DNA of 44,006 nucleotides from Gemmatimonadota bacterium (GTDB lineage Bacteria > Gemmatimonadota > Gemmatimonadetes > Longimicrobiales > RSA9): NCBI GenBank assembly GCA_016207445.1, contig JACQPS010000270.1:1-44006 (forward strand). The letters run 5' to 3'. The notes under the pieces were generated by a model. The model was given only the letters and a program-made list of their open reading frames with translations, did no database searches and was not told the DNA's origin. Below, piece after piece: positions 18,626 through 29,581 of the stretch. The position numbers and the translations under genes are program-made. Each line of letters begins with the position of its first letter. Position 1 is the stretch's first letter.

Positions 18626-21600
18626 ATGGCCCCCGAGAGCACGACCCGCGATCTCGCGACCCCGACGTTCTCCAAGGCGGACCTCGCCGTCCGATTGGAG
18701 GAGGAGGTCGAGCGCGCGCTGCTGGAGGGCTACCCCCTCTCGTTCCTGATCGTCGACCTCGACCACTTCAAGAGCATCAACGACGCGTTCGGGCACGGGC
18801 GTGGGGACGAGGTGCTGCAGGAGTTCGTGCAGCGCGTCCACAAGACGATGCGCAGTACGGACCTGCTGTTTCGCTTCGGCGGCGACGAGTTCGTGCTGCT
18901 CGCGCCCAACACGTCGCTGGTGCAGGGCGGCATGCTCGGACGCCGCGTGCTGGAGGCCGTCCGTGCGACCCCGTTCGAGGGCACGCCGCCCGTCTCGCTG
19001 GCGCTCAGCATCGGCGTAGCGAGCCTGCCGGAGGACGCCCAGACGGGCGGTGAGCTGTTCCAGCGGGCGGACCGGCGCCTGTACGAAGCGAAGCGCCGCG
19101 GCCGCGGGCGTGTGGCCTGGGACGACCACGCCGCGCCCGAGCCACTGGCATTCGATCGCGGTGCCCGCATGATCGAGTGCGACGAGGACCTGGAGACGGT
19201 GCGTGCATTCCTCCAGGGTGTGCTGGAGAAAGGCAAAGGCGCACTCGACGTACGCGGTGCCCCCGGCTCCGGTCGCTCCCGCTTCCTGGTGGAGACGAAG
19301 AGCCTGGCGCGGCTGCTCGGATACGAGATCCTGGAGGTCTCGGGCGAGCCGACGCTGCGCGGGCGCGCGTTCGCCACGCTGAGCCGCGGCCGGACGGGCT
19401 TCGAGGGTGGGATCCCGCGCACAGCCGAGCAGCTGGTGACGGCGCTTCGCGACGAGCTCGAGCGCAAGGCGAAGCCGGGCGTGCTGATCGCGCTCGACGA
19501 CCTCCCCTTCTTCGACCAGGAAACCATCGAGCTCATGACGGCTGCGTTCGCGGCGCCCGAGCTGCCCGTGGTCGCCCTGGCCTACGTCACCGATGGCCAG
19601 ACGCATCCCGTGCTGCCCTCGTCCGAGGGCACATGTGATGCCACTATCGAGCTCACGGGGTTGAGCCCGGCCGGCGTGCGGACGTGGCTGCGCGAAGTGC
19701 TGCGCTGGGAGCCGCCCGAGTCATTCGTCGACTGGCTGCATGCCGAGACGGACGGCTTGCCCGCGCGCGTGCGCGATGGCCTGCTTTACCTCACGGAGAA
19801 GTCGCTGCTGCGCCGCGAGGACGAGGGTTGGATCTTCCCCGATCCACCGCTCACCACGCCGCTGCGCGAGCAGCTGCGTTTCCGCTCCACCGTGCCGCCG
19901 CACAACCTGCCGAAGGTCGAGTCCAGCATTCTGGGCCGGGAGCGGGAGATCAACGAAGCCAAGCGCCTCTTGCGCGCCGGCCGTCTCGTCTCGCTGCTCG
20001 GGCCCGGCGGGATGGGAAAAACCAGGCTCGCGCTCCAGGTCGCGTGGGAGCAGCTGCGGCTCTTCCCGGACGGCTGCTTCTTCGTCGGCCTGGCGGCGAT
20101 CGATTCGCCCGAGCTGCTCGTGCCCACTATCGCGGAAAGCATCCACTTCGAGTTCGCGGGCAGCGCGGACCCGCAGACGCAGCTCTTCGACCATCTGCGC
20201 GGCAAGCGCATGATGCTCGTGACGGACAACTTCGATCACCTGGTCCAGGGCGCGGAGCTGCTGCCCGAGCTGATGGCGTGCTCCTCCGACCTGCGGGTGC
20301 TCGTCACCTCGCGCGAGCGGCTCAATGTGCGGGGCGAGGCGATCCTCGAGTTGCAGGGGCTGTCGGCGGACGCGACGGAGGGAACGACGTCGGCTGCGGC
20401 GCAGCTCTTCCTGAACCGCGCGCGCGCGAGCGTCCCCGGCTACACGCCCTCGGCGGCGGACGGCGCGCAGATCCAGCGTATTTGCCGGCAGGTGGATGGT
20501 TTGCCGCTCGCGATCGAGATCGCGGCGGCGCTGGTGCGCGTGCTCACGTGCGTGGAGATCGCCGCGGAGATCGGCCGCAGCTTCGACGCACTGGTCGCCC
20601 GTCGGCGCGACATGCCGGAGCGACACCGCAGCCTGCGGGCGGTCTTCGACTATTCCTGGAACCTGCTCACGGCGCACGAGCAGACGGCGCTGCGCCGGGT
20701 CTCGGCGTTCCGCGGTGGCTTCCGCGCCGAGGCCGGCCGGCGCGTGGCCGGGCTGTCCGTGCCCGCACTCGCGGCGCTACTCGACAAGTCGTTGTTGCGC
20801 CGCGGCGCCTCGGGCCGCTACGAGCTGCACGGCGTCATCCGCCAGTACGCGGCCGAACGGTTGGGGGCGGACGCCGCCGAGCGCGAGATGGTGGAGCGGC
20901 TCCATTGCGAGTATTTCGCCGACTTCCTCCAGGGCCGCGCGGACCGGCTGCGAGGCCGCGGCCAGCAGCAGGCCCTGGAGGAGATCGGCGCCGAGATCGA
21001 CGATGTGCGAGCCGGCTGGCAGTGGGCGGTCGAGCACGGGGAGGAGCAGCTGATCGAGCGGCTCCTGCCCGCGCTGCACCTGTTCTACGAGCGCCGCGCC
21101 TGGTACCGGGAGGGAGAAGAGTTGCTCGGCTGGGCAGCACGCAAGCTGGGCCGACAGTCCCGGCTCGCGGCGCGCGTGCTCGCGCGGCAAGCGCACTTCT
21201 GCCTGCGGCTGGCACAGTTCACCAAAGCGCGGCGGCTCACCAAGGCCAGCCTGCGCATCCTGCGCGAGTTCGGTCACGATACCGACACGGCATTCGCGCT
21301 CTGGCTGCTCGGCGGCATCGCGCTCAAGACGGGGCAGTACGAGCGCGCGGGCAAGCTCTACCTGCGCTCGGAGCAAATCTACCGCCAGAGCCATTCGCCC
21401 CTCGATCTGGCCGATTGCCTGAACGATCGCGGCTCGGTGGCCATGGCGCAGGGACAGTACGAGCTCGCCGAGCAGCTGTTCCGGCGCAGCCTGCGCATCC
21501 GCCGGCTGGTGGGCAACCAGGCGGGCGTGGTCATGTGCCTCACCAATCTGGGTGTGCTGGCGGACGCACTCGGCAAGGCGGAGGAGGCACAGCGGCTGTT

Positions 21601-22177
21601 CGAGGAAAGCCTGCGCCGCTCGCGCGAGCTGGGCGATTTCCGCAACACGGCCATCGGCCTGGTCAACCTGGGCGCGTTCACCCTCAGCATGGCGAAGCGT
21701 GAGCGCTCGACGCGGCTGCTGCGCCAGGCGCGGGAGCTGCTGGAGCAGAGTCTGGCGATGTTCCGCGAGGTCGGCGACCGCACGGCCACGGTGATCGTGC
21801 TTCACAACCTGGGTGACCTGGCCCGGGAAGAAGGGCTATCGGAAGACGCGCTCGGCTACTATCGCGAGGCGACGACCCTGGCGGCCGAGACCAACGCGCT
21901 GCCGTTGCAGGCACGGGTCGCCGTGGGCTTGGGGCGGCTTCTGGTCGCGTTGGGTCGAACGGCCGAGGGACTCCGCCTGCTCGCCTGCGTCTGCGAGCAC
22001 CCGGCCACGGACCAGTCCGATCGCGAGGAGGCGAAGCAGGCGATCGCCGACCTGCGCGCGAAGCTGCCGGATGATCTCTTCAGCCTCGCGGAAGATGCCG
22101 GCCAGCGCGCCCGGCTCGAGGATCTGCTGCTGGAAACGCTCACGTCCACCCCCGTGTTCGCGAACGCGCCCGCCTGA
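18626..22177 (+). CDS. GGDEF diguanylate cyclase fused to two tandem STAND-type P-loop NTPase modules and a TPR array (1183 aa)
   Basis: GGDEF domain (DLDHFKSINDAFGHGRGD, RSTD-x5-GGDEF). Module 1: GAPGSGRS, VLIALDD, TDGLP (AAA_16-like). Module 2: GPGGMGKT, LVTDNFDHL, RVLVTSRE (NB-ARC/AfsR-like). About 350 aa of TPR-like repeats follow. Confidence 0.9.
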   Translation: MAPESTTRDLATPTFSKADLAVRLEEEVERALLEGYPLSFLIVDLDHFKSINDAFGHGRGDEVLQEFVQRVHKTMRSTDLLFRFGGDEFVLLAPNTSLVQGGMLGRRVLEAVRATPFEGTPPVSLALSIGVASLPEDAQTGGELFQRADRRLYEAKRRGRGRVAWDDHAAPEPLAFDRGARMIECDEDLETVRAFLQGVLEKGKGALDVRGAPGSGRSRFLVETKSLARLLGYEILEVSGEPTLRGRAFATLSRGRTGFEGGIPRTAEQLVTALRDELERKAKPGVLIALDDLPFFDQETIELMTAAFAAPELPVVALAYVTDGQTHPVLPSSEGTCDATIELTGLSPAGVRTWLREVLRWEPPESFVDWLHAETDGLPARVRDGLLYLTEKSLLRREDEGWIFPDPPLTTPLREQLRFRSTVPPHNLPKVESSILGREREINEAKRLLRAGRLVSLLGPGGMGKTRLALQVAWEQLRLFPDGCFFVGLAAIDSPELLVPTIAESIHFEFAGSADPQTQLFDHLRGKRMMLVTDNFDHLVQGAELLPELMACSSDLRVLVTSRERLNVRGEAILELQGLSADATEGTTSAAAQLFLNRARASVPGYTPSAADGAQIQRICRQVDGLPLAIEIAAALVRVLTCVEIAAEIGRSFDALVARRRDMPERHRSLRAVFDYSWNLLTAHEQTALRRVSAFRGGFRAEAGRRVAGLSVPALAALLDKSLLRRGASGRYELHGVIRQYAAERLGADAAEREMVERLHCEYFADFLQGRADRLRGRGQQQALEEIGAEIDDVRAGWQWAVEHGEEQLIERLLPALHLFYERRAWYREGEELLGWAARKLGRQSRLAARVLARQAHFCLRLAQFTKARRLTKASLRILREFGHDTDTAFALWLLGGIALKTGQYERAGKLYLRSEQIYRQSHSPLDLADCLNDRGSVAMAQGQYELAEQLFRRSLRIRRLVGNQAGVVMCLTNLGVLADALGKAEEAQRLFEESLRRSRELGDFRNTAIGLVNLGAFTLSMAKRERSTRLLRQARELLEQSLAMFREVGDRTATVIVLHNLGDLAREEGLSEDALGYYREATTLAAETNALPLQARVAVGLGRLLVALGRTAEGLRLLACVCEHPATDQSDREEAKQAIADLRAKLPDDLFSLAEDAGQRARLEDLLLETLTSTPVFANAPA
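18851..18892 (+). other. I-site (RSTD) and GGDEF active-site motif
   Basis: cgc agt acg gac = RSTD at 18851-18862. ggc ggc gac gag ttc = GGDEF at 18878-18892. Five residues lie between them, the canonical spacing. Confidence 0.85.
19256..19279 (+). other. Degenerate Walker A of NTPase module 1 (GAPGSGRS, Arg in place of Lys)
   Basis: ggt gcc ccc ggc tcc ggt cgc tcc read directly. Confidence 0.8.
20000..20023 (+). other. Canonical Walker A of NTPase module 2 (GPGGMGKT)
   Basis: ggg ccc ggc ggg atg gga aaa acc read directly. Confidence 0.85.
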
Positions 22178-22232: not shown

Positions 22233-22307
22233 GGCCCGACTGTTGCACCCGTGGGGCGCGGGTGCCCGCGCAAGGGATCGGCCATCGCAGCGCGCGCAGG
22301 AGACAGC

Positions 22308-23459
22308 TTGGGTCGCAGCGGCTTCTTCGGGATCGCGACGTTCCTCTACCTGTGGCTGATGGTGGGCTTCGCGACCGGGACGGCCACGCTGCTCGGACCG
22401 GTGAAGTGGCTGACCAGCGCGCTGCGGAGCGCCGGCTGGAGCCAGCACGGGGAAGACCTGGCGGTGAACGGCCTCATCGTGCTGTACCTCGCCGTTTCGT
22501 TCGTGCTCGCCCGTCATCTCCTCCGACGCATGCGCGCAGCGAACCGGCGCCGTGTCCGCATCGGCATCCCCCTCGTCGTCACCGCCGCCGCCACGCTCTC
22601 CCTCTGGGGGTGGCTGCACCCCGCGTTGCTCGCGCGTGCCGCCGGCGGGCCCGGCGGCAGCCTCACGTTCCAGGGGGGAGCCGAGCTCGTCTTCGGGCCG
22701 TATCCGGACCGCGCTCGACTGGCCGAGCTGAAGCGCGCGGGCTTCACGGCCGTCATCTCGCTGCAGCACCCGGCGGTGCTCCCGTTCGAGCCGCGGGGGA
22801 TCACGGCGGAGCGGGAGGCCGCGCGGGAGGTCGGCATCGCGTTCATCCACGCGCCCATGCTGCCGTGGGTCAGCGAGAACGCGGGGTCGCTGCGGAAGAT
22901 CCTGGCGCTGGCGCGGGGGCGCGGACGCTACTACGTGCACTGCGGCCTCGGTCGCGACCGCGCCAACGTGGTCAAGCGCTGGCTGGAGCGAAACGGCGCC
23001 CGCGTGGCCGCGGCTCGGGATTTCACGGCCGCACGCAGCTTCGCGCGCCGCGTGGCCGAGGGCCGCTGGCTCATGGAGCGCGGCCGCATCGTGCGTCTCG
23101 AGCCAGACCTCTGGCTCGTTCCCTATCCGAACCGCCACGAGCTGTTCGGCAACATGCTCGCGGGGCAGCTCGCCTACGTGTTGCTCCTGCTCGACCCGAG
23201 CGACGCCGAACAGCGGGAATGGCTCGCCGAGGCGGAGCGCCTGTTCCGGGAGTTCGATGTGCCGTTCGGCCACCGGCCGGTGGCTGCGAGCGACCGTGCA
23301 GAGATCGGCAGGGCGGCCGCCGCGGCGCGGCGGCTCCCGCGGCCCGCCGCGGTGGTAGTCGCGCGTACGGCGCCGCGCGAGCCCGCGGACCTGGCCCGGG
23401 AGTTCGCGCGCGCCTATGGCGGGACCACGGGAGCCCACGGGCAGGAGGCGGCGCGATGA
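22308..23459 (+). CDS. 3-TM membrane protein with CX5R cysteine phosphatase (DSP/PTP-like) domain plus degenerate second phosphatase-like domain (paralogue 1)
   Basis: TTG 22308 preceded by AGGAG (start chosen by alignment to paralogue 2). Three hydrophobic helices; YYVHCGLGRDRANVVKRWL (HCX5R). The C-terminal half repeats the fold signature without the Cys. Confidence 0.8.
   Translation: MGRSGFFGIATFLYLWLMVGFATGTATLLGPVKWLTSALRSAGWSQHGEDLAVNGLIVLYLAVSFVLARHLLRRMRAANRRRVRIGIPLVVTAAATLSLWGWLHPALLARAAGGPGGSLTFQGGAELVFGPYPDRARLAELKRAGFTAVISLQHPAVLPFEPRGITAEREAAREVGIAFIHAPMLPWVSENAGSLRKILALARGRGRYYVHCGLGRDRANVVKRWLERNGARVAAARDFTAARSFARRVAEGRWLMERGRIVRLEPDLWLVPYPNRHELFGNMLAGQLAYVLLLLDPSDAEQREWLAEAERLFREFDVPFGHRPVAASDRAEIGRAAAAARRLPRPAAVVVARTAPREPADLAREFARAYGGTTGAHGQEAAR
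22938..22961 (+). other. HCX5R phosphatase P-loop of paralogue 1 (HCGLGRDR)
   Basis: cac tgc ggc ctc ggt cgc gac cgc read directly; Cys is codon 212. Confidence 0.8.
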
Positions 23460-24571
23460 AGCAGCGGCCGGTCGTCGTCGTCTTCCTGTTCCTCTACCTC
23501 TGGCTGGTCGTCGGGTTCTTCGCCGGAACCGTTACGCTGCTCGGTCCCGTCCGCTGGCTGACCGCGCTCGTGCGCGCGGCGAGCTGGACGCAAGGCCGCG
23601 AGAATGTCGCGGTCGCGGGCGTGATCGCGGCGTACCTGATCGCCTCGCTCGCGCTCGCACGCTGGCTGCTGCGTGTCGTGCTGCGCGCACAGCGCCGGGG
23701 CGTACGCTTCGGGATCCCCCTGGGCATCACGGTCGCGGCAGCAGTCTGTCTGTGGGCGTGGATGCAGCCGGGCACGCTGGCGCGGCCCGACGCCGGTCCC
23801 TCCCAGCGCGTCGCGCTGGCCAGCGGCGCCCAGTTCGTGTTCGGTCCCTATCCGGATGCGGAGCGGCTGCGGCGCCTGAAAGCAGACGGCTTTACGGCCG
23901 TCATCTCGCTGCTGCATCCGGCGGTGCTGCCGTTCGAGCCGAAGATCCTGGCGGAGGAGCGGCGGAACGCGCGCGCGGCGGGACTTGCCCTGATGCACGC
24001 CCCCATGCTGCCGTGGGTCGGATCGAACGAGCGCTCGCTCGCCGAGATCCGGCGCCTGGCCACGGGCGCGGGGCGCTATTACGTGCACTGCTATCTGGGG
24101 CGCGATCGCGCCAACGTGGTCAAGCGGGTGCTCGAGGACATGGGCAGGGCCGTGGCGGGTGCCGCCGACCTGCAGCAGCTGCGCGGATTCGAGGAGCGGA
24201 GCGAGCCGTTCGAGCGCGGTCCGCTCCAGCGTCTCGAGCGCGGCGTGTGGCTGATCCCGTATCCCAACCAGCACGAGCTGTTCGCGTACCTGCTGTTCGG
24301 GTCGGTTCGTCACGTCGTGCTGCTGCTCGACCCCGCGTTTCCGCAGCAAAGAGGATGGCTGTCCGAAGCCGAGCGCCTCTTCCGGGAATATGCCATGCCG
24401 TTCACACTCGAGCCGCTGCGCGGGGGCGATGCCGCGCGTGCGGCCGAGATCGCACGGCGCGTGCGAGTGCTGCCCCGACCGGTCGCGGTCGTCGCGGCCT
24501 TCACGGACGCGGCGAAGGATACGCGCGTGGCACGCGCCTTCCGGGCGGCGTACGGCGTCGGGACACAGTAA
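23456..24571 (+). CDS. 3-TM membrane protein with CX5R cysteine phosphatase domain plus degenerate second domain (paralogue 2)
   Basis: ATG 23456 overlaps TGA 23457-23459 (ATGA). About half of residues identical to paralogue 1 by eye. YYVHCYLGRDRANVVKRVL. Confidence 0.85.
   Translation: MKQRPVVVVFLFLYLWLVVGFFAGTVTLLGPVRWLTALVRAASWTQGRENVAVAGVIAAYLIASLALARWLLRVVLRAQRRGVRFGIPLGITVAAAVCLWAWMQPGTLARPDAGPSQRVALASGAQFVFGPYPDAERLRRLKADGFTAVISLLHPAVLPFEPKILAEERRNARAAGLALMHAPMLPWVGSNERSLAEIRRLATGAGRYYVHCYLGRDRANVVKRVLEDMGRAVAGAADLQQLRGFEERSEPFERGPLQRLERGVWLIPYPNQHELFAYLLFGSVRHVVLLLDPAFPQQRGWLSEAERLFREYAMPFTLEPLRGGDAARAAEIARRVRVLPRPVAVVAAFTDAAKDTRVARAFRAAYGVGTQ
24086..24109 (+). other. HCX5R phosphatase P-loop of paralogue 2 (HCYLGRDR)
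   Basis: cac tgc tat ctg ggg cgc gat cgc; Cys is again codon 212. Confidence 0.8.
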
Positions 24572-24728: not shown

Positions 24729-26198
24729 CTACTCGCCTGGCCCCGCCGGCTGCGGCCCGGGTGCGAACGCCTGCCAGCCGGTCGGCCCGATGAGCGGGCG
24801 CCCCTGCAGCTTGTAAAGGGCCGCCTCCAGGATCACGGCGGCGGTATTGATGTCCGTGACGCCGGTCGGGACGAGCGACTCCTCGTACAGCCCCGAGTGC
24901 CAGCCCTCGTCGCTGCGCGCCTTGCGCAGCTCTGTGAGCACGCGCTCGGTGTACTCGTTGGGGAAGAGCGCGTGCCAGCCGAAGGCGGCCTTGGTGCTGA
25001 TCCAGCGCGGGCGGTCGAAGTTCTTGCCCGGTGAGGCCGCGTCAATGACCCACGCCTTGCCGTTGCAGAAGACGCAGTAGTAGTAGAAGTAGTACGGCGG
25101 CACGCTGAGCGCGTCCTCGCTCACCATCGTGAGCTTCCCCGTCTGCCGGTACCTTGCCTCCTGCGCTGCGAGGACGTTGCGCGCCAGCTCGCGGACCTCG
25201 GGCGTCCAGCCCAGCTCGATGCCCATGAGGAAGAACGGCTCGCTGGTGAGGCGGTCCAGCTTGCGCCGGTCCCGGTAGAGCGGTACGCCCAGCAGCGTCA
25301 TCGGCTGCGCGTTGGCCATCAGGTCCAGCGCCTTCTCGGCGCGATGCCCCCAGACGGCGAAGCCGATCGCGGCGTACTGCTCGTAGCCGATGCGTCCTTC
25401 CAGGTAGCGCCAGCGTTTCCCCTTCTGACTCGCGCTCGGCTGCTCGCCGTGCAGGTAGCCGCCCCGGATGACGCGCCCGAAGTCGGTGCGGTTCACGATC
25501 GCCTGCACGTCCTGCGCGTACTGCGGCTGGTTCACGGCCACGATCTTCAACCACACGAGGAAGCGGCCGAGGTCGATGGCGGACCAGCCGTGCGCCAGCG
25601 GCCGTTCGGCCCGGGTCGGCAACACGCCGGTGCGCGTCGCGTAGTCCTTGTTGTACGTGATGCCGTCGACGAGCGGCGCTCGCTTCAGCGTTGCGAGCAG
25701 GCGGCGCATGCGACGGTCGTACTCGGCATCGCGCAGCAGGTCGAGCTCGTGGGCGGAGTAGAGGGCGGCGATCCCGCTGGCGATGTCCCAGGTGGTCGCG
25801 TAATCCCAGTGCGGCGTCGCGCTCATCAGCCCGGTCGCGGGCTGGTAGGTTCGCTCCACCAGCCGCCACGCGGTCCGCGCCGCGTCCAGGTAGAGGTTCA
25901 GGTCCGCACCGGCGTTCTCCGGCTCGATGCCGGGGCGCGCTCCGGCCGCCGGCGCGGTGCCGGCCGACGGGGGCTCGCTCGCGGGGCCGCCTGGCCGTGG
26001 CGCCTCCTGCGAGCAGATCGCGAGCAACAGACCTGCGCCCAGCGCCAGCACGGGGGCCGCCACGAGCGCCTGCCCACGGACGCGGCTCCCGATCCGGCCG
26101 TGCAGAGATGCGACGACGCCCGCCACGCGCCCCACGCCGCGGACCGTCTGCGTCGGCGCCTCTGCTCCGCCGTGCATGATTCCGGGCTTCCTTGTCAT
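24729..26198 (-). CDS. Secreted or N-terminally anchored Trp/Tyr-rich helical protein, possibly DUF3131-type (glycan hydrolase/binding-like)
   Basis: TM/lipobox-like LVAAPVLALGAGLLLAICS, Pro/Ala linker, then about 380 aa with TTWDIASGIAALY, GWSAIDLGRFLVWL, YYFYYYCVFCNGKAW. Family call is from memory only. Alternative start ATG 26177. Confidence 0.6.
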   Translation of the reverse strand: MTRKPGIMHGGAEAPTQTVRGVGRVAGVVASLHGRIGSRVRGQALVAAPVLALGAGLLLAICSQEAPRPGGPASEPPSAGTAPAAGARPGIEPENAGADLNLYLDAARTAWRLVERTYQPATGLMSATPHWDYATTWDIASGIAALYSAHELDLLRDAEYDRRMRRLLATLKRAPLVDGITYNKDYATRTGVLPTRAERPLAHGWSAIDLGRFLVWLKIVAVNQPQYAQDVQAIVNRTDFGRVIRGGYLHGEQPSASQKGKRWRYLEGRIGYEQYAAIGFAVWGHRAEKALDLMANAQPMTLLGVPLYRDRRKLDRLTSEPFFLMGIELGWTPEVRELARNVLAAQEARYRQTGKLTMVSEDALSVPPYYFYYYCVFCNGKAWVIDAASPGKNFDRPRWISTKAAFGWHALFPNEYTERVLTELRKARSDEGWHSGLYEESLVPTGVTDINTAAVILEAALYKLQGRPLIGPTGWQAFAPGPQPAGPGE

Positions 26199-26458: not shown

Positions 26459-28780
26459 ATGAGCGAGGCTTCCGTGGATTCCGGGGGCGGAGCCGCCATG
26501 CTCGAGCCAGTGTCGATCCCGCCCGCGGACGCCACGCCCCGGCTTCCCGAGTGGCAGGAACGCATCATTCGATTCGTCGCGGCGCTGGCGCTGGCGTTCG
26601 GCTGCTACTGGGTCACCTGGCGCTGGACGAGCACGCTCAATCTCTCCGCACTCTGGTTCTCGCTCCCGCTCGTGCTCGCGGAGACGTGGGTCGCCGTCCG
26701 CAGCTTCTTCACCACGTTCACCACCTGGAAGCTGCGGCGCCGCGAGCCCCGGCCCGCGCCGCCGGGTCTCTCGGTCGACGTCTTCATCACGACCTACGAC
26801 GAGCCGCTCGAGATCATTCGTCGCACGGCGGTCGCGGCGCGCCAGATCCGCTACCCGCACCGGACCTACCTCCTGGACGACGGCAAGCGCGAGGAAGTGC
26901 GGGCGCTGGCCGGGGAGCTGGGCGTGGACTACATCCGGCGTGCGGGCAACGAGCACGCGAAGGCCGGGAACCTGAATCACGCGCTCTCGGTCACACAGGG
27001 CGAATTCATCCTCCAGCTCGACGCCGACCACGTCCCGCTGCCGCACATCCTCGACCGGCTGCTCGGCTTCTTCGACGATGCTCGCACCGCCTTCGTACAG
27101 TCGCCGCAGGACTTCTACAACGTGGACTCGTTCACGCACGACGTGAACGAAAAGGCGCGCCGGATCTGGGAGGAGCAACGGCTGTTCTTCTCCATCATCC
27201 AGCCTGGAAAGGACCACTGGAACGCGGCCTTCTTCTGCGGGAGCTGCGGCGTGATCCGTCGCGCGGCGCTCGACCATATCGGCGGATTCTCGACGCTGAC
27301 CCTGACGGAGGACATGGAGACGTCGCTGGTGCTGCACGGCCGCGGCTGGCGCTCCGTCTTCTGGGGAGAGAGCCTCGCCTATGGTCTGGCGCCCGCCTCG
27401 GCCGCCGCCTACCACGTCCAGCGCCTGCGCTGGGGCCAGGGGGCGATGCAGATCCTGCGGAAGCTGAACCCGCTGCGCTACCCCGGGCTCACGCTGGCGC
27501 AGCGCATCTGCTACCTGGATTCGGTTTCCTCGTATCTCGACGGCTTTGCCAAGCTGGTGCTGTACCTGTCGCCCATCGTGTTCTTCTTCAGCGGGGTCCT
27601 GCCGATCCATACGACCGATCACGAGTTCCTGGTGCGGTTCATCCCGTTCCTGGCGCTGCAGCTGACCGCCCACACGCTGCTGTTCCGCGGCTCCGCCTTC
27701 CTGCGATTGGCCGAGCGCTACAACATGTCGAAGTTCTTCACGTACGTGGTGGCGATCAGCGGCTACTTCGCGAAGGGACGGCTGCGCTTCCACGTGACGC
27801 CGAAGGGGCCGGGCGACGTTCCGTTCAAGACCTATGCGCCGCAGCTCGTGCTGGTCGTGCTCACCGTGCTCGCGGTGAGCTGGGGCACGCTCGCGTCGAC
27901 GCTCGGGTGGATGAACTACCAGGTGCCGGGGTGGGGATCGCTCGCGTTCTGGTTCAACTTCGGCTGGGCGCTCTACCACTTCGCCTTCGCCGGCTACGTG
28001 TTGCAGCTCAGCCTGTACGTGAAGCAGCAGCGTGCGGACCAGCGGTTTCGCGACGAGTTCCCGGTCGAGGTGTCGCTCCTCGACCCGGGGGGTCGCGAAG
28101 CGGGTCGCTGCGTCGCGCTCACGAGCAATCTGCATCCCGGGGGCGTCGCGCTGCGGGCGATGGCGCCGGTGGAGCCCGGTACGCGCGTGCTGGTACGCTT
28201 GCCGCTGCTGCCCCGCACGGTGGCAGCGCACGGCGTGATCGTGCACCGCCAGGCGCGGCAGACGCGGCACGGGCCGGTGTACGCGCACGGAGTGCGATTC
28301 GAGGGGTTGTCCCTGGACGACCGCGATGCGATCGAGCTGCACTGCACGCAACACGCCGCGCCGGCGCGGCGGCTGCGCTACCGCGATGCCTCCGACCTGT
28401 TCAACGGCGCGGTCCGCTGGATCTACGATGCGCGCTCGGATCGTCGGCGCGTCGTACGCTTGCCCGTGCGCATCTCGCTCGAGGCGCCAGATGGGCCGGC
28501 CGCCCTGGGGCTCGGACTGCTCGAGGATGTGAGCCGGCGCGGCGCCCGGCTTCAGCTCGGCCACCCGCTGCCGCCGGGCGCCCGGATCGGCTACGAGATC
28601 CCCGGCTCCGAGATCGCCGGGGCCGGCGTGGTCGTCTTCACGCGCGCGCTGGAGACGCCGCTGGGCGTGCAGTTCACGGTGGGGGTGAAGCTCGACGTGG
28701 TCGCGGCCACCGGCCGTTCGTGGCGGCGCCTCGGCGCCGCCAGGCTGGTACGGAGAGTGCAATCACTGACACGGGCCTGA
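26459..28780 (+). CDS. BcsA-like processive GT2 glycan synthase with two C-terminal PilZ domains
   Basis: ATG 26459 after GGAGGAG. Motifs TTYDEP, HAKAGNLN, LDADH, QSPQDF, FFCGSCGVIRR, LTEDMETS, QRLRWGQG (27419-27433). Multiple TM helices. PilZ-1 RADQRFR...SNLHPGG; PilZ-2 DRRRVVRLPV...EDVSRRGARL. Confidence 0.9.
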   Translation: MSEASVDSGGGAAMLEPVSIPPADATPRLPEWQERIIRFVAALALAFGCYWVTWRWTSTLNLSALWFSLPLVLAETWVAVRSFFTTFTTWKLRRREPRPAPPGLSVDVFITTYDEPLEIIRRTAVAARQIRYPHRTYLLDDGKREEVRALAGELGVDYIRRAGNEHAKAGNLNHALSVTQGEFILQLDADHVPLPHILDRLLGFFDDARTAFVQSPQDFYNVDSFTHDVNEKARRIWEEQRLFFSIIQPGKDHWNAAFFCGSCGVIRRAALDHIGGFSTLTLTEDMETSLVLHGRGWRSVFWGESLAYGLAPASAAAYHVQRLRWGQGAMQILRKLNPLRYPGLTLAQRICYLDSVSSYLDGFAKLVLYLSPIVFFFSGVLPIHTTDHEFLVRFIPFLALQLTAHTLLFRGSAFLRLAERYNMSKFFTYVVAISGYFAKGRLRFHVTPKGPGDVPFKTYAPQLVLVVLTVLAVSWGTLASTLGWMNYQVPGWGSLAFWFNFGWALYHFAFAGYVLQLSLYVKQQRADQRFRDEFPVEVSLLDPGGREAGRCVALTSNLHPGGVALRAMAPVEPGTRVLVRLPLLPRTVAAHGVIVHRQARQTRHGPVYAHGVRFEGLSLDDRDAIELHCTQHAAPARRLRYRDASDLFNGAVRWIYDARSDRRRVVRLPVRISLEAPDGPAALGLGLLEDVSRRGARLQLGHPLPPGARIGYEIPGSEIAGAGVVVFTRALETPLGVQFTVGVKLDVVAATGRSWRRLGAARLVRRVQSLTRA
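28027..28330 (+). other. PilZ domain 1 (RxxxR present, DxSxxG degenerate: NLHPGG)
   Basis: QQRADQRFRDEFPVEV...ALTSNLHPGGVALRA...GVRFEGL. Confidence 0.6.
28432..28720 (+). other. PilZ domain 2 (canonical RxxxR and DxSxxG)
   Basis: RSDRRRVVRLPVRISL...LLEDVSRRGARLQL...GVQFTVG. Confidence 0.7.
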
Positions 28781-28816
28781 GAAGGTGCCCGCGGTCCGGC
28801 TATGGAGGCGAATGGC

Positions 28817-29581
28817 ATGAAACAGCTCACCTTTACAAGCAGGGCGGCCATCGGCGGGGCGCTGGCTCTGACCCTGGCCGCGCTGAATCCGCTGTCCGCG
28901 CAGGTGGTCACAGGGGTCGGCGTCGGCGAGGTGTCGGGCGACGACGTGTCCCTGATCCTGCTGGGCGGCGCCGTCCATCCGGGCGGTCTCGGGTGGAAGC
29001 CGGTGGCGAGCCTGACGGGCTACCGGGTCTCCTTCCCGGCCACTGCAGACGAGAACGCGGAGATCTGGGCGCTGACGCCGGCGGTCGGGCTGCGCTATCG
29101 CATGAGCACCGGGGCGGTCCAGGCGAAGGTCGGCTACACATTTCAGAGCGAGGACCGCGAGGAAGCGTTGGGGCGTGTCTTCGGCGGCGGGAACAGCGGC
29201 GTCGTGACCTCGGCCCAGGCCGACTACTGGGGCGACGGCCGCTGGGGCCTGCAGGCGATCGGCGCCCTCAACCTGGAATCGGAGTACCTGTGGAGCCGCG
29301 GCCGCGCCATGCGGCGCGTGTACGGCTGGGATACGGGCTCCGCGCTCGCCGGCCTCGACGCCACCTGGCAGGGTGACATCGACGGCAGCGACCTGAACCG
29401 CTATCGCGCGTTCCAGATCGGGCCCGTCGCGCAGTGGGTGATCAACCCACTCGGGCTGATCGTCATCGGCGGCGCCGGTATCAAAGACGACAACACGATC
29501 CGGGACGAGACCTGGTACGCGCGCCTCGAGCTCGTCTGGTCGTCATCGCTGCGGCGGCGGGAGACAGTGGCGCGGGATTAG
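28817..29581 (+). CDS. Putative outer-membrane beta-barrel protein
   Basis: ATG 28817 eight nt after GGAGG. Signal peptide ending LSAQ. Alternating hydrophobic/polar strands rich in G, Y, W (VGLRYRM, AKVGYTFQ, WGLQAIGALNL, ARLELVW). Confidence 0.6.
   Translation: MKQLTFTSRAAIGGALALTLAALNPLSAQVVTGVGVGEVSGDDVSLILLGGAVHPGGLGWKPVASLTGYRVSFPATADENAEIWALTPAVGLRYRMSTGAVQAKVGYTFQSEDREEALGRVFGGGNSGVVTSAQADYWGDGRWGLQAIGALNLESEYLWSRGRAMRRVYGWDTGSALAGLDATWQGDIDGSDLNRYRAFQIGPVAQWVINPLGLIVIGGAGIKDDNTIRDETWYARLELVWSSSLRRRETVARD

Follow-up and report, generated by a model that had tools for sequence, protein, structure and literature searches.

A family of membrane-anchored PTP-fold proteins with a degenerate phosphatase repeat, encoded beside polysaccharide synthases and lipid-kinase-type genes in Gemmatimonadota, Acidobacteriota and other bacteria

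Two adjacent genes (gene 1 and gene 2) in a 44,006-nucleotide stretch of DNA from a Gemmatimonadota bacterium (contig JACQPS010000270.1 of assembly GCA_016207445.1; hereafter, the window) encode membrane-anchored proteins with a cysteine-phosphatase domain of the protein tyrosine phosphatase (PTP) and dual-specificity phosphatase (DSP) type, and several described systems resemble them in part. TpbA (PA3885) of Pseudomonas aeruginosa is a soluble, periplasmic cysteine phosphatase with a DSP fold, which represses the membrane cyclase TpbB (YfiN) and has been linked to the control of polysaccharides and biofilms (PMC2691606, PMC4409338). The DUF442/BLH_phosphatase proteins (PF04273), represented by structures from Shewanella (3gxh) and Neisseria (NMA1982, 2f46), have the same CX5R fold. 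SEX4, LSF2 and laforin combine the DSP fold with a tie to glucan polymers, starch or glycogen, in the plastid or cytosol, and the P-loop of glucan phosphatases reads CxAGxGR. PTPMT1, the myotubularins and the Sac domain, which are eukaryotic or cytosolic, apply the cysteine-phosphatase mechanism to the phosphates of lipid head groups. Active and inactive PTP domains occur within one chain in the receptor PTPs (D1-D2) and in Cdc14 A/B, all of them eukaryotic protein phosphatases. In the periplasm, lipid phosphates are handled by the PAP2-type enzymes PgpB and LpxT and by BacA, and periplasmic transfer is paired with cytoplasmic re-phosphorylation of the lipid in the case of OpgB or BcsG with DgkA and of LtaS with DgkB, LpxT using undecaprenyl-PP; OpgB and BcsG are tied to glucan modification. 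These enzymes have PAP2, BacA or alkaline-phosphatase folds, and none of them uses a PTP-fold Cys nucleophile. Exopolysaccharide systems of the synthase-dependent kind are not known to require a lipid carrier.

In the family to which the two window proteins belong, an anchor of three transmembrane (TM) helices is followed by a PTP-fold domain (D1) and a degenerate repeat of the same domain (D2), and the genes adjoin polysaccharide synthases and lipid-kinase-type genes. We tentatively favour the reading that these are outward-facing lipid-phosphate phosphatases (or phosphotransferases) serving exopolysaccharide export, with a substrate that we infer. DUF442 protein 3gxh is the best structural match of D1, at ~16% identity, and the matched DUF442 chains are short (142 to 157 residues) and lack anything equivalent to the 3-TM anchor, the dead repeat or the synthase and kinase context. 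TpbA has a different architecture and P-loop and acts on a membrane cyclase, whereas the cyclase encoded in the window looks cytoplasmic and the family lacks conserved synteny with cyclases. SEX4, LSF2 and laforin have neither a membrane anchor nor a lipid-kinase partner, and the glucan phosphatase loop contrasts with the CxLGxDR loop of the family. The loops of myotubularins (CSDGWDR) and Sac domains (CxDCLDR) end in D-R, as does CGLGRDR, which we take as a lead only; PTPMT1, the myotubularins and the Sac domain do not have the 3-TM and dead-repeat arrangement, and the window family has no detectable membership of their sequence families. With PgpB, LpxT, BacA, OpgB, BcsG and LtaS, the proposed system would share the logic of an outward enzyme and a cytoplasmic kinase, in a different fold. 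Receptor PTPs and Cdc14 have another domain order and orientation, the homology being limited to the fold (Cdc14B matched over 256 aligned columns with a root-mean-square deviation of 14.8). As for the accessory subunits of Bcs operons, the window pair shares with them synteny with a BcsA homologue and no subunit homology, since the gene 1 and gene 2 products have no Pfam or NCBIfam match to named subunits (BcsB, C, G, Z and others). Adjacency to or fusion with lipid-kinase-type genes, as would suit a lipid-phosphate phosphatase that works with a lipid kinase, recurs in the family and is not seen in the window itself.

The products of gene 1 and gene 2, of 383 and 371 aa, are 54% identical over 363 aa (BLASTP, E = 3e-125), a similarity far beyond chance, and have in common the stretch YYVHC[G/Y]LGRDRANVVKR, in which the Cys is residue 212 of each protein. 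Hydropathy reveals three hydrophobic segments in both. An AlphaFold (AF2) model of the gene 1 product, built from 48 homologues (mean pLDDT 86.9), places helices at residues 3-29, 46-77 and 81-103 and a short amphipathic helix at 31-41, followed by 2 soluble domains, D1 and D2, which share the order of strands and helices. When the model was compared with the PDB using Foldseek, the top matches were exclusively cysteine phosphatases (DUF442 3gxh, E = 2.7e-4; KAP; TpbA, E = 4.4e-3; LSF2; Tk-PTP; SEX4; NMA1982; PFA-DSP), with a probability of 1.00 for DUF442, KAP, TpbA, LSF2, SEX4, Tk-PTP and PFA-DSP. Given this PTP-type alpha/beta fold and the HCX5R loop, the proteins belong to the PTP/DSP cysteine-phosphatase superfamily. 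A profile search of PDB sequences returned only non-significant matches, to an endolysin (E = 0.089) and LSF2 (E = 0.11).

The second soluble domain, D2, is a decayed, catalytically dead copy of D1. Profiles of the 2 domains built from ~260 diverse homologues align over 107 columns with a probability of 97.8% and an E value of 8.8e-13 (hhalign), and the stretch of D2 aligned to HCxLGxDR contains no Cys. An earlier comparison based on 48 close sequences had given a probability of 10%; 265 diverse sequences made it decisive. An extra domain, D3, present in 53 of the fetched homologues, is homologous to both D2 (E = 1.9e-13) and D1 (E = 2.8e-8), and 43 of the 48 members carry a single Cys within the soluble part. 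The initial annotation, made from the DNA letters and open reading frames, had described two genes of about 380 aa and about half identical, overlapping by ATGA and with a Cys at codon 212, three N-terminal TM helices, a DSP/PTP-like domain with a CX5R loop and a further C-terminal domain, in an architecture that it did not recognise as a characterised family, 130 bp downstream of a GGDEF-STAND gene without an intervening hairpin. All of these features are borne out, and the C-terminal domain can now be named as D2. The longest homologues contain up to five PTP-like modules between two membrane anchors, with only the first being catalytic; in four proteins of 946 to 994 aa (P0130, P0148, P0246 and P0265), the dead D2-D3 modules occur twice and are followed by the kinase-like membrane domain described below.

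The catalytic loop is highly conserved in the family, HC..G.DR being kept in 255 of 266 homologues. At least 95% conserved among these sequences are D1 residues F127, G130, Y132, P133, L141, L152, P159, E161, E168, P183, L185-W187, N191, Y209, H211, C212, L214, G215, D217 and R218, and 28 of the 119 D1 columns are conserved at 90% or more. TM1 is almost as conserved as D1, with G20, G24 and L28 reaching the same level of at least 95% and the two glycines forming a GxxxG motif. Both window proteins retain every residue that is invariant in the 48-sequence alignment. The family is sizeable, comprising ~720 clusters at 50% identity when matches with E up to 1e-3 are counted and 273 clusters at E up to 1e-30. 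No Pfam or NCBIfam model scores above threshold with the gene 1 and gene 2 products, and across the 48 family members Pfam gives weak matches only. DUF442/BLH_phosphatase is matched by neither window protein and weakly by 2 of the 48 (best E = 0.0033), and the only NCBIfam match is a weak one to the N-terminus of Blh (E = 0.009). Weak matches to other Pfam models of the PTP clan were found among the 48 members (Tc-R-P in 20, best E = 1.6e-4; PTP-SAK in 19; Y_phosphatase3 in 7; DSPc in 3), whereas the window proteins do not match DSPc, Y_phosphatase3, PTP-SAK, Tc-R-P or PTP-NADK even at E up to 1. Several members are labelled 'PTP superfamily phosphohydrolase (DUF442 family)' by JGI. Because D1 has a PTP fold and yet no Pfam or NCBIfam model recognises it above threshold, it forms a family of its own, new to the PTP superfamily. 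The fold and chemistry of the family are known; the family itself, its 3-TM/active/dead-repeat architecture, its predicted extracytoplasmic location and its partnership with lipid kinases and synthases appear to be undescribed, with no account of them in Pfam (newest models 2025), NCBIfam 20.0 or the searchable literature.

A scan of species-representative (GTDB) genomes with two exact peptide patterns recovered 69 loci from Gemmatimonadota, Acidobacteriota, Ignavibacteriaceae and Myxococcota, every one of them in a metagenome-assembled genome (MAG; 69/69), and neighbours were scored on six-frame translations of up to 10 kb of DNA per side. A processive GT2 synthase, either BcsA-like or PgaC/chitin-synthase-like, lies within 5 kb in 32 of the 69 loci, and where at least 5 kb is available on both sides, a synthase or a kinase is nearby in 26 of 28. 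Genes for DUF3131 proteins adjoin the family gene in 16/69 loci. According to gene calls, the family gene stands beside both a BcsA-like GT2 gene and a DUF3131 gene in six homologue loci (L001, L003, L004 and L006-L008), which represent Acidobacteriota (Vicinamibacterales in two cases), another Gemmatimonadetes MAG and metagenome contigs without classification; in such clusters, the BcsA-like synthase is constantly accompanied by DUF3131. A second type of operon, found at 6195-12203 of L057 and in its relatives, consists of genes for a HEAT-repeat protein, a PgaC-like GT2, a TPR-YaiO barrel, the family protein and a kinase-like protein.

The other recurrent partners are of lipid-kinase type. 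In long homologues (~600-1000 aa), the C-terminal end is formed by a multi-TM domain that contains the motifs TPYTRKIFHF, GWGDAVGEPVGxxWGKHKY, RSLEGS and HGLDNLT, and in many loci the same domain is encoded by a separate gene of 225-250 aa directly beside the family gene, the proteins being 60-69% identical and sharing the invariant motifs RK.FH, GWGDA.GEP.G, EGS and DN. Fusion is seen in 15 of the 266 homologues, and the separate gene is adjacent in 16 of the 69 loci. The kinase-like protein is labelled 'phytol kinase' by JGI, one divergent member matches Pfam CTP_transf_1 (E = 0.004), and all other Pfam, NCBIfam and PDB sequence searches with it returned nothing. Its WGDAxGExxGxxxGKH signature aligns, over the motif only, to the WGADSGAYMFGKLFGKHK motif of E. 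coli CdsA (hhalign, E = 0.02), and the top Foldseek match of its model (pLDDT 95.8) is TmCdsA, at a weak E value of 0.057 and a TM score of ~0.3. With moderate confidence, we assign it to the CTP-dependent CdsA/dolichol-kinase/phytol-kinase superfamily, of which it looks like an undescribed branch. In a Gemmatimonadaceae subgroup, the position directly upstream of the family gene is occupied by a different gene on the same strand, separated by 56-131 nt and encoding a soluble lipid kinase of the DAGK_cat/YegS type (E = 1.7e-27; 31/69 loci); in these loci, lysine-biosynthesis genes follow downstream and mostly no synthase was detected in the available DNA. Thus, two mutually unrelated lipid-kinase families adjoin the same phosphatase family, and a gene of one or the other type (COG0170-like or DAGK_cat) lies within 1 kb on the same strand in 47 of the 69 loci. 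The DAGK_cat gene occupies, for instance, positions 8905-9864 of L030 and is present in 30 other Gemmatimonadota-type loci (L022-L067).

The charge distribution around the TM helices bears on the side of the membrane at which the phosphatase domains would operate. Taken over the family, the net charge is +1.9 at the N-terminus, +4.7 in the loop between TM2 and TM3 and −0.1 in the 15 residues after TM3. In the fused homologues, the first helix after the soluble domains is followed by a K/R-rich segment (gwlrmnrnvqTPYTRK). Since the TM2-TM3 loop and the K/R-rich segment of the fused proteins agree, D1 and D2 are predicted to lie outside the cytoplasm, on the periplasmic side of the inner membrane.

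Lipid-phosphate chemistry at the outer face is the reading that we favour, because of the invariant catalytic loop, the anchor with its conserved TM1, the predicted outside location, the partnership and fusion with lipid kinases, and the setting in polysaccharide clusters. The gene 1 and gene 2 proteins would reside in the inner membrane, each with 3 TM helices, an active PTP/DSP domain and a dead copy, both domains being periplasmic, and the family would be an accessory module of synthase-dependent exopolysaccharide systems. In the window, the system served would comprise a BcsA-like synthase gated by cyclic di-GMP (c-di-GMP), a DUF3131 protein and possibly an outer-membrane barrel protein. 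The most likely substrate would be a membrane lipid phosphate, either of the polyprenyl-phosphate or of the diacylglycerol-phosphate type, on the outer side of the inner membrane. The HCxLGxDR loop would hold the phosphate for attack by Cys212, and the lipid alcohol would be released. In most other genomes, the adjacent or fused lipid kinase, facing the cytoplasm, would then re-phosphorylate the lipid, so that the cycle spans the membrane; the two opposing activities on one lipid are not futile if each works on its own face. The two paralogues may act together, for example as a heteromer held by the TM1 GxxxG motif. The initial annotation had offered, as its alternative, that the proteins dephosphorylate a lipid or glycan carrier for the glycan synthase encoded next to them, and it is this proposal that comparative genomics favours. 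A conserved and catalytically intact cysteine phosphatase, predicted to face outward and found in the company of synthases and lipid kinases, suggests that polysaccharide export involves a lipid-phosphate step, or a phosphate modification, that has gone unrecognised, in organisms, Gemmatimonadota and Acidobacteriota among them, which are known mostly from MAGs. If the reading is right, PTP would join PAP2, BacA and the alkaline-phosphatase superfamily as a fourth fold among the enzymes that handle lipid phosphates on the outer side of the inner membrane.

Several observations weigh against this reading. BcsA-type synthases are not known to depend on lipid carriers. The structural neighbours include protein and glucan phosphatases, and the fold does not discriminate between substrates. 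Members of the superfamily carry a general-acid Asp on a loop about 30 residues ahead of the Cys; in that region, the window family has a conserved loop, HAPMLPWVxxN, without an invariant acidic residue, the only invariant acids being E161 and D217 of the P-loop, and a canonical general-acid Asp loop was not found in the family alignments. The outward orientation is derived from charge bias by the positive-inside rule, and the net charge of +2 on loop 1 is an imperfect fit to an N-in/C-out arrangement. The kinase-like partner, placed by annotation, a motif alignment and a weak structural match, could be a cytidylyltransferase instead of a kinase. Finally, the 44 kb of the window encode neither the kinase-like membrane protein (hidden Markov model search over six frames) nor a DAGK_cat protein, and the proposed cycle is therefore not evident at the window locus.

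Among the alternatives, the one that survives best, although we consider it somewhat unlikely, is that the enzyme acts on the polysaccharide itself, either dephosphorylating the nascent glycan, in the manner of SEX4, LSF2 and laforin, or moving a lipid phosphoryl group via Cys212 to the glycan, with the dead D2 and D3 domains holding the chain. If the phosphoryl group is moved, the lipid charged by the kinase would serve to shuttle phosphate across the membrane. The constant association with two types of processive GT2 and with outer-membrane barrels fits this proposal, as do the multiplied non-catalytic PTP-like repeats of longer homologues and the structural likeness to LSF2 and SEX4, LSF2 also being the only PTP-type entry, at a non-significant E value, in the PDB profile search. 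Kinase and phosphatase on opposite faces would again not be futile if the phosphate ended on the product, and LpxT is a periplasmic phosphatase-fold enzyme that moves phosphate from a lipid pyrophosphate. However, the pairing with DAGK_cat genes mostly occurs where no synthase was detected within the DNA at hand, the CGLGRDR loop departs from that of the glucan phosphatases, no carbohydrate-binding module was detected in Pfam and NCBIfam scans of the window proteins or a Pfam scan of the 48 members, and there is no report of phosphorylated polysaccharide from these organisms. A related proposal, which we regard as unlikely, is a transmembrane phosphoryl relay: a lipid kinase facing the cytoplasm, either CTP-dependent and CdsA/dolichol-kinase-like or ATP-dependent and DAGK-like, would charge a lipid alcohol, the lipid phosphate would flip to the outer leaflet, and Cys212 would pass the phosphoryl group to the emerging polysaccharide or another envelope acceptor instead of water, the paralogues forming a heteromer on the synthase. 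Such a relay, if true, would make the family PTP-fold phosphotransferases that phosphorylate polymers in a compartment without ATP.

It is quite unlikely that the predicted topology is wrong and the domains are cytoplasmic, their target being the synthase, a partner-switching component, a sugar phosphate or a lipid made by the kinase in the inner leaflet. The imperfect fit of loop 1 would be accommodated by such an arrangement, acidobacterial clusters contain genes for cytoplasmic phospho-signalling proteins (STAS, RsbW-like and SpoIIE), and cysteine phosphatases are commoner in the cytoplasm; against this, two independent anchors, the charge difference between the TM2-TM3 loop and the segment after TM3 and the K/R-rich segment of the fused proteins, place the domains outside, and a cytoplasmic phosphatase sharing its lipid with a cytoplasmic kinase would run a futile cycle. 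We see still less of a case for mainly structural proteins, in which a membrane-anchored periplasmic partner would replace BcsB at the synthase and guide the polymer, catalysis being secondary or lost. Two of the three modules of the long forms are catalytically dead, the conserved GxxxG of TM1 suggests packing of the helix with a partner, and no BcsB-like gene was seen among called genes or in domain scans of neighbours in the window and related clusters; nevertheless, the conservation of H211, C212, G215, D217 and R218 over the 266 homologues is hard to explain without catalysis, and the family also occurs where no synthase was detected nearby.

The initial annotation had linked the pair to the GGDEF-STAND gene, by analogy with TpbA and TpbB. 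In its fullest form, this proposal makes the two proteins TpbA-like protein phosphatases that control the GGDEF-STAND cyclase and hence c-di-GMP and polysaccharide output. The genes do lie 130 nt downstream of the cyclase gene, which ends at 22177, with no terminator-like hairpin found in the gap, and TpbA is both a structural neighbour and periplasmic. Four acidobacterial loci have GGDEF and HD-GYP genes at a distance of 7-8 kb upstream. As called, a 943-aa metagenome protein (P0125) has TM segments as well as a GGDEF-like domain (E = 1.9e-10) at its N-terminal end, ahead of a 3-TM/D1/D2/D3 module. The acidobacterial loci and P0125 are residual hints, as expected around polysaccharide operons controlled by c-di-GMP. 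Across the 69 loci, a GGDEF gene is present within 10 kb in 5 and is never adjacent, the nearest being at least 2 kb away in each. Phosphatase genes adjoining a GGDEF-STAND gene were found only in contigs of the same organism (L009-L011). Direct contact between the phosphatases and the GGDEF-STAND protein is unlikely, because the phosphatase domains are predicted to be outside and the cyclase has no N-terminal membrane segment, and the two PilZ domains of the neighbouring synthase offer a simpler explanation for the presence of a c-di-GMP cyclase nearby. Control of the cyclase by the phosphatases, tempting as that story is, thus goes unsupported and is corrected here as the least probable of the readings. 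In P0125, no GGDEF motif is apparent by eye in the GGDEF-like domain.

The relationship between the two paralogues is older than their adjacency might imply. Two types of P-loop dominate among the 266 homologues, HCGLGRDR as in gene 1 (130 sequences) and HCYLG[RK]DR as in gene 2 (100 sequences), and 174 of 336 family members score higher against gene 2 than against gene 1. In a pairwise matrix, gene 2 is 57-58% identical to P0121 and P0122 and 54-55% identical to gene 1, with P0109 about equal to gene 1 at 55% over a shorter alignment. Since gene 2 is nearer to other relatives than to gene 1, the two represent old sub-lineages, and a recent tandem duplication, which we considered, is rejected. 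The ATGA overlap couples the two genes translationally, and, together with the conserved GxxxG motif, makes a gene 1/gene 2 heteromer plausible. Adjacent pairs of family genes recur elsewhere, uncommonly: those of L006/L016 and L083 are in tandem with both copies of the G type, and in the divergent pair of L082 one copy is of the G type and the other of the Y type, the combination found in the window. An apparent tandem pair at 9980-11049 of L080 was discarded as a single gene in two overlapping frames (model positions 5-173 and 169-371), probably split by a frameshift or sequencing error.

Gene 1 begins with TTG at 22308, preceded by GGAG with a 5-nt spacer, and gene 2 with ATG at 23456, 7 nt after GGAGG; the gene 1 product is identical to an NCBI-called protein (P0001), and public gene calls concur with both lengths. 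A third open frame on the forward strand, of 769 aa at 22262-24571, was rejected as a gene. There, the gene 2 frame stays open across gene 1 in DNA of 72% G+C (the window as a whole is ~70% G+C), an artefact of high G+C content that could mislead gene callers.

The genes around the pair are listed in Table 1. In the GGDEF-STAND protein, the GGDEF domain starts at residue 9 with an intact RFGGDEF motif and is followed by the STAND NTPase and a long TPR array; hydropathy shows no N-terminal membrane segment and only two weak internal peaks, so the protein looks cytoplasmic. Its gene is probably co-transcribed with gene 1 and gene 2, the 130-nt gap being free of terminator-like sites, and the protein is likely to serve as the source of c-di-GMP for the synthase's PilZ domains. 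The synthase itself matches the structures of E. coli BcsA with an E value of 5.5e-78 over ~510 residues and carries the motifs FFCGS, TED and QRLRW, and RSDRR and DVSRRG are found in the second PilZ domain. The DUF3131 protein has an N-terminal hydrophobic anchor (segment 44-62 by hydropathy), and a sequence search found no solved relative of it. The 259-aa protein is possibly an outer-membrane barrel, and many Gemmatimonadota loci encode a homologue of it in the vicinity of the family gene.

Table 1. Features of the gene pair and its neighbours in the window, and the separate kinase-like gene in related loci.
Feature	Coordinates	Strand	Description	Basis
GGDEF / NB-ARC-type STAND NTPase / TPR gene	18626..22177	+	1183 aa	Pfam GGDEF (E = 1.6e-36); NB-ARC, NACHT and TPR matches
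Gene 1	22308..23459	+	383 aa; 3 TM helices, active PTP-fold domain D1 (HCGLGRDR type), degenerate PTP-like D2	Translation, start site, AF2 model, Foldseek
Gene 1 membrane region, aa 3-103	22314..22616	+	TM1, amphipathic helix 31-41, TM2, TM3	AF2 model, hydropathy
Gene 1 P-loop (CX5R)	22938..22961	+	H211-C212-G-L-G-R-D-R218	Invariant in 48-sequence alignment
Gene 1 D2, aa 258-372	23079..23423	+	Degenerate PTP-like repeat without Cys or P-loop	hhalign, model
Start/stop overlap	23456..23459	+	ATGA; gene 1 TGA with gene 2 ATG	Read directly from sequence
Gene 2	23456..24571	+	371 aa; architecture of gene 1, HCYLGRDR-type P-loop	Translation, 54% identity to gene 1
Gene 2 P-loop	24086..24109	+	H211-C212-Y-L-G-R-D-R218	Translation
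DUF3131 protein	24729..26198	-	489 aa in open reading frame list, 482 aa as called	Pfam DUF3131 (E = 7.5e-97)
BcsA-like processive GT2 synthase	26459..28780	+	773 aa as called; two C-terminal PilZ domains	Pfam GT2, PilZ
259-aa protein	28802..29581 (open reading frame list coordinates)	+	259 aa	Weak Pfam match to Phenol_MetA_deg only
Separate kinase-like multi-TM gene (other loci)	L004 9192-9935; L006 7255-7938; L001 9269-9946; L008 9247-9966			

The clusters elsewhere differ in their additional genes. Several of the six loci with BcsA-like GT2 and DUF3131 genes also contain genes for BcsS-like and ankyrin-repeat proteins, a KaiC-like ATPase, sugar-nucleotide transferases and a STAS/RsbW-like/SpoIIE module. 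Three acidobacterial loci (L004, L007 and L008) encode two ankyrin-repeat proteins, a KaiC-like ATPase, a PIG-L deacetylase, two sugar-1-phosphate nucleotidyltransferases and the STAS/RsbW-like/SpoIIE set; their synthases have no PilZ domain, and control seems to have been swapped there from c-di-GMP to partner switching. In L008, a PAP2 lipid phosphatase gene directly follows that of the synthase. The family protein of L057 has 510 aa with a D3 extension, and genes for a response-regulator HD-GYP protein and a Reg_prop/Y_Y_Y-GGDEF protein lie upstream. At 12527-14627 of L006, the DUF3131 gene is followed by two genes of the cellulase family GH6, which hints that the polymer made by this cluster is a beta-glucan.

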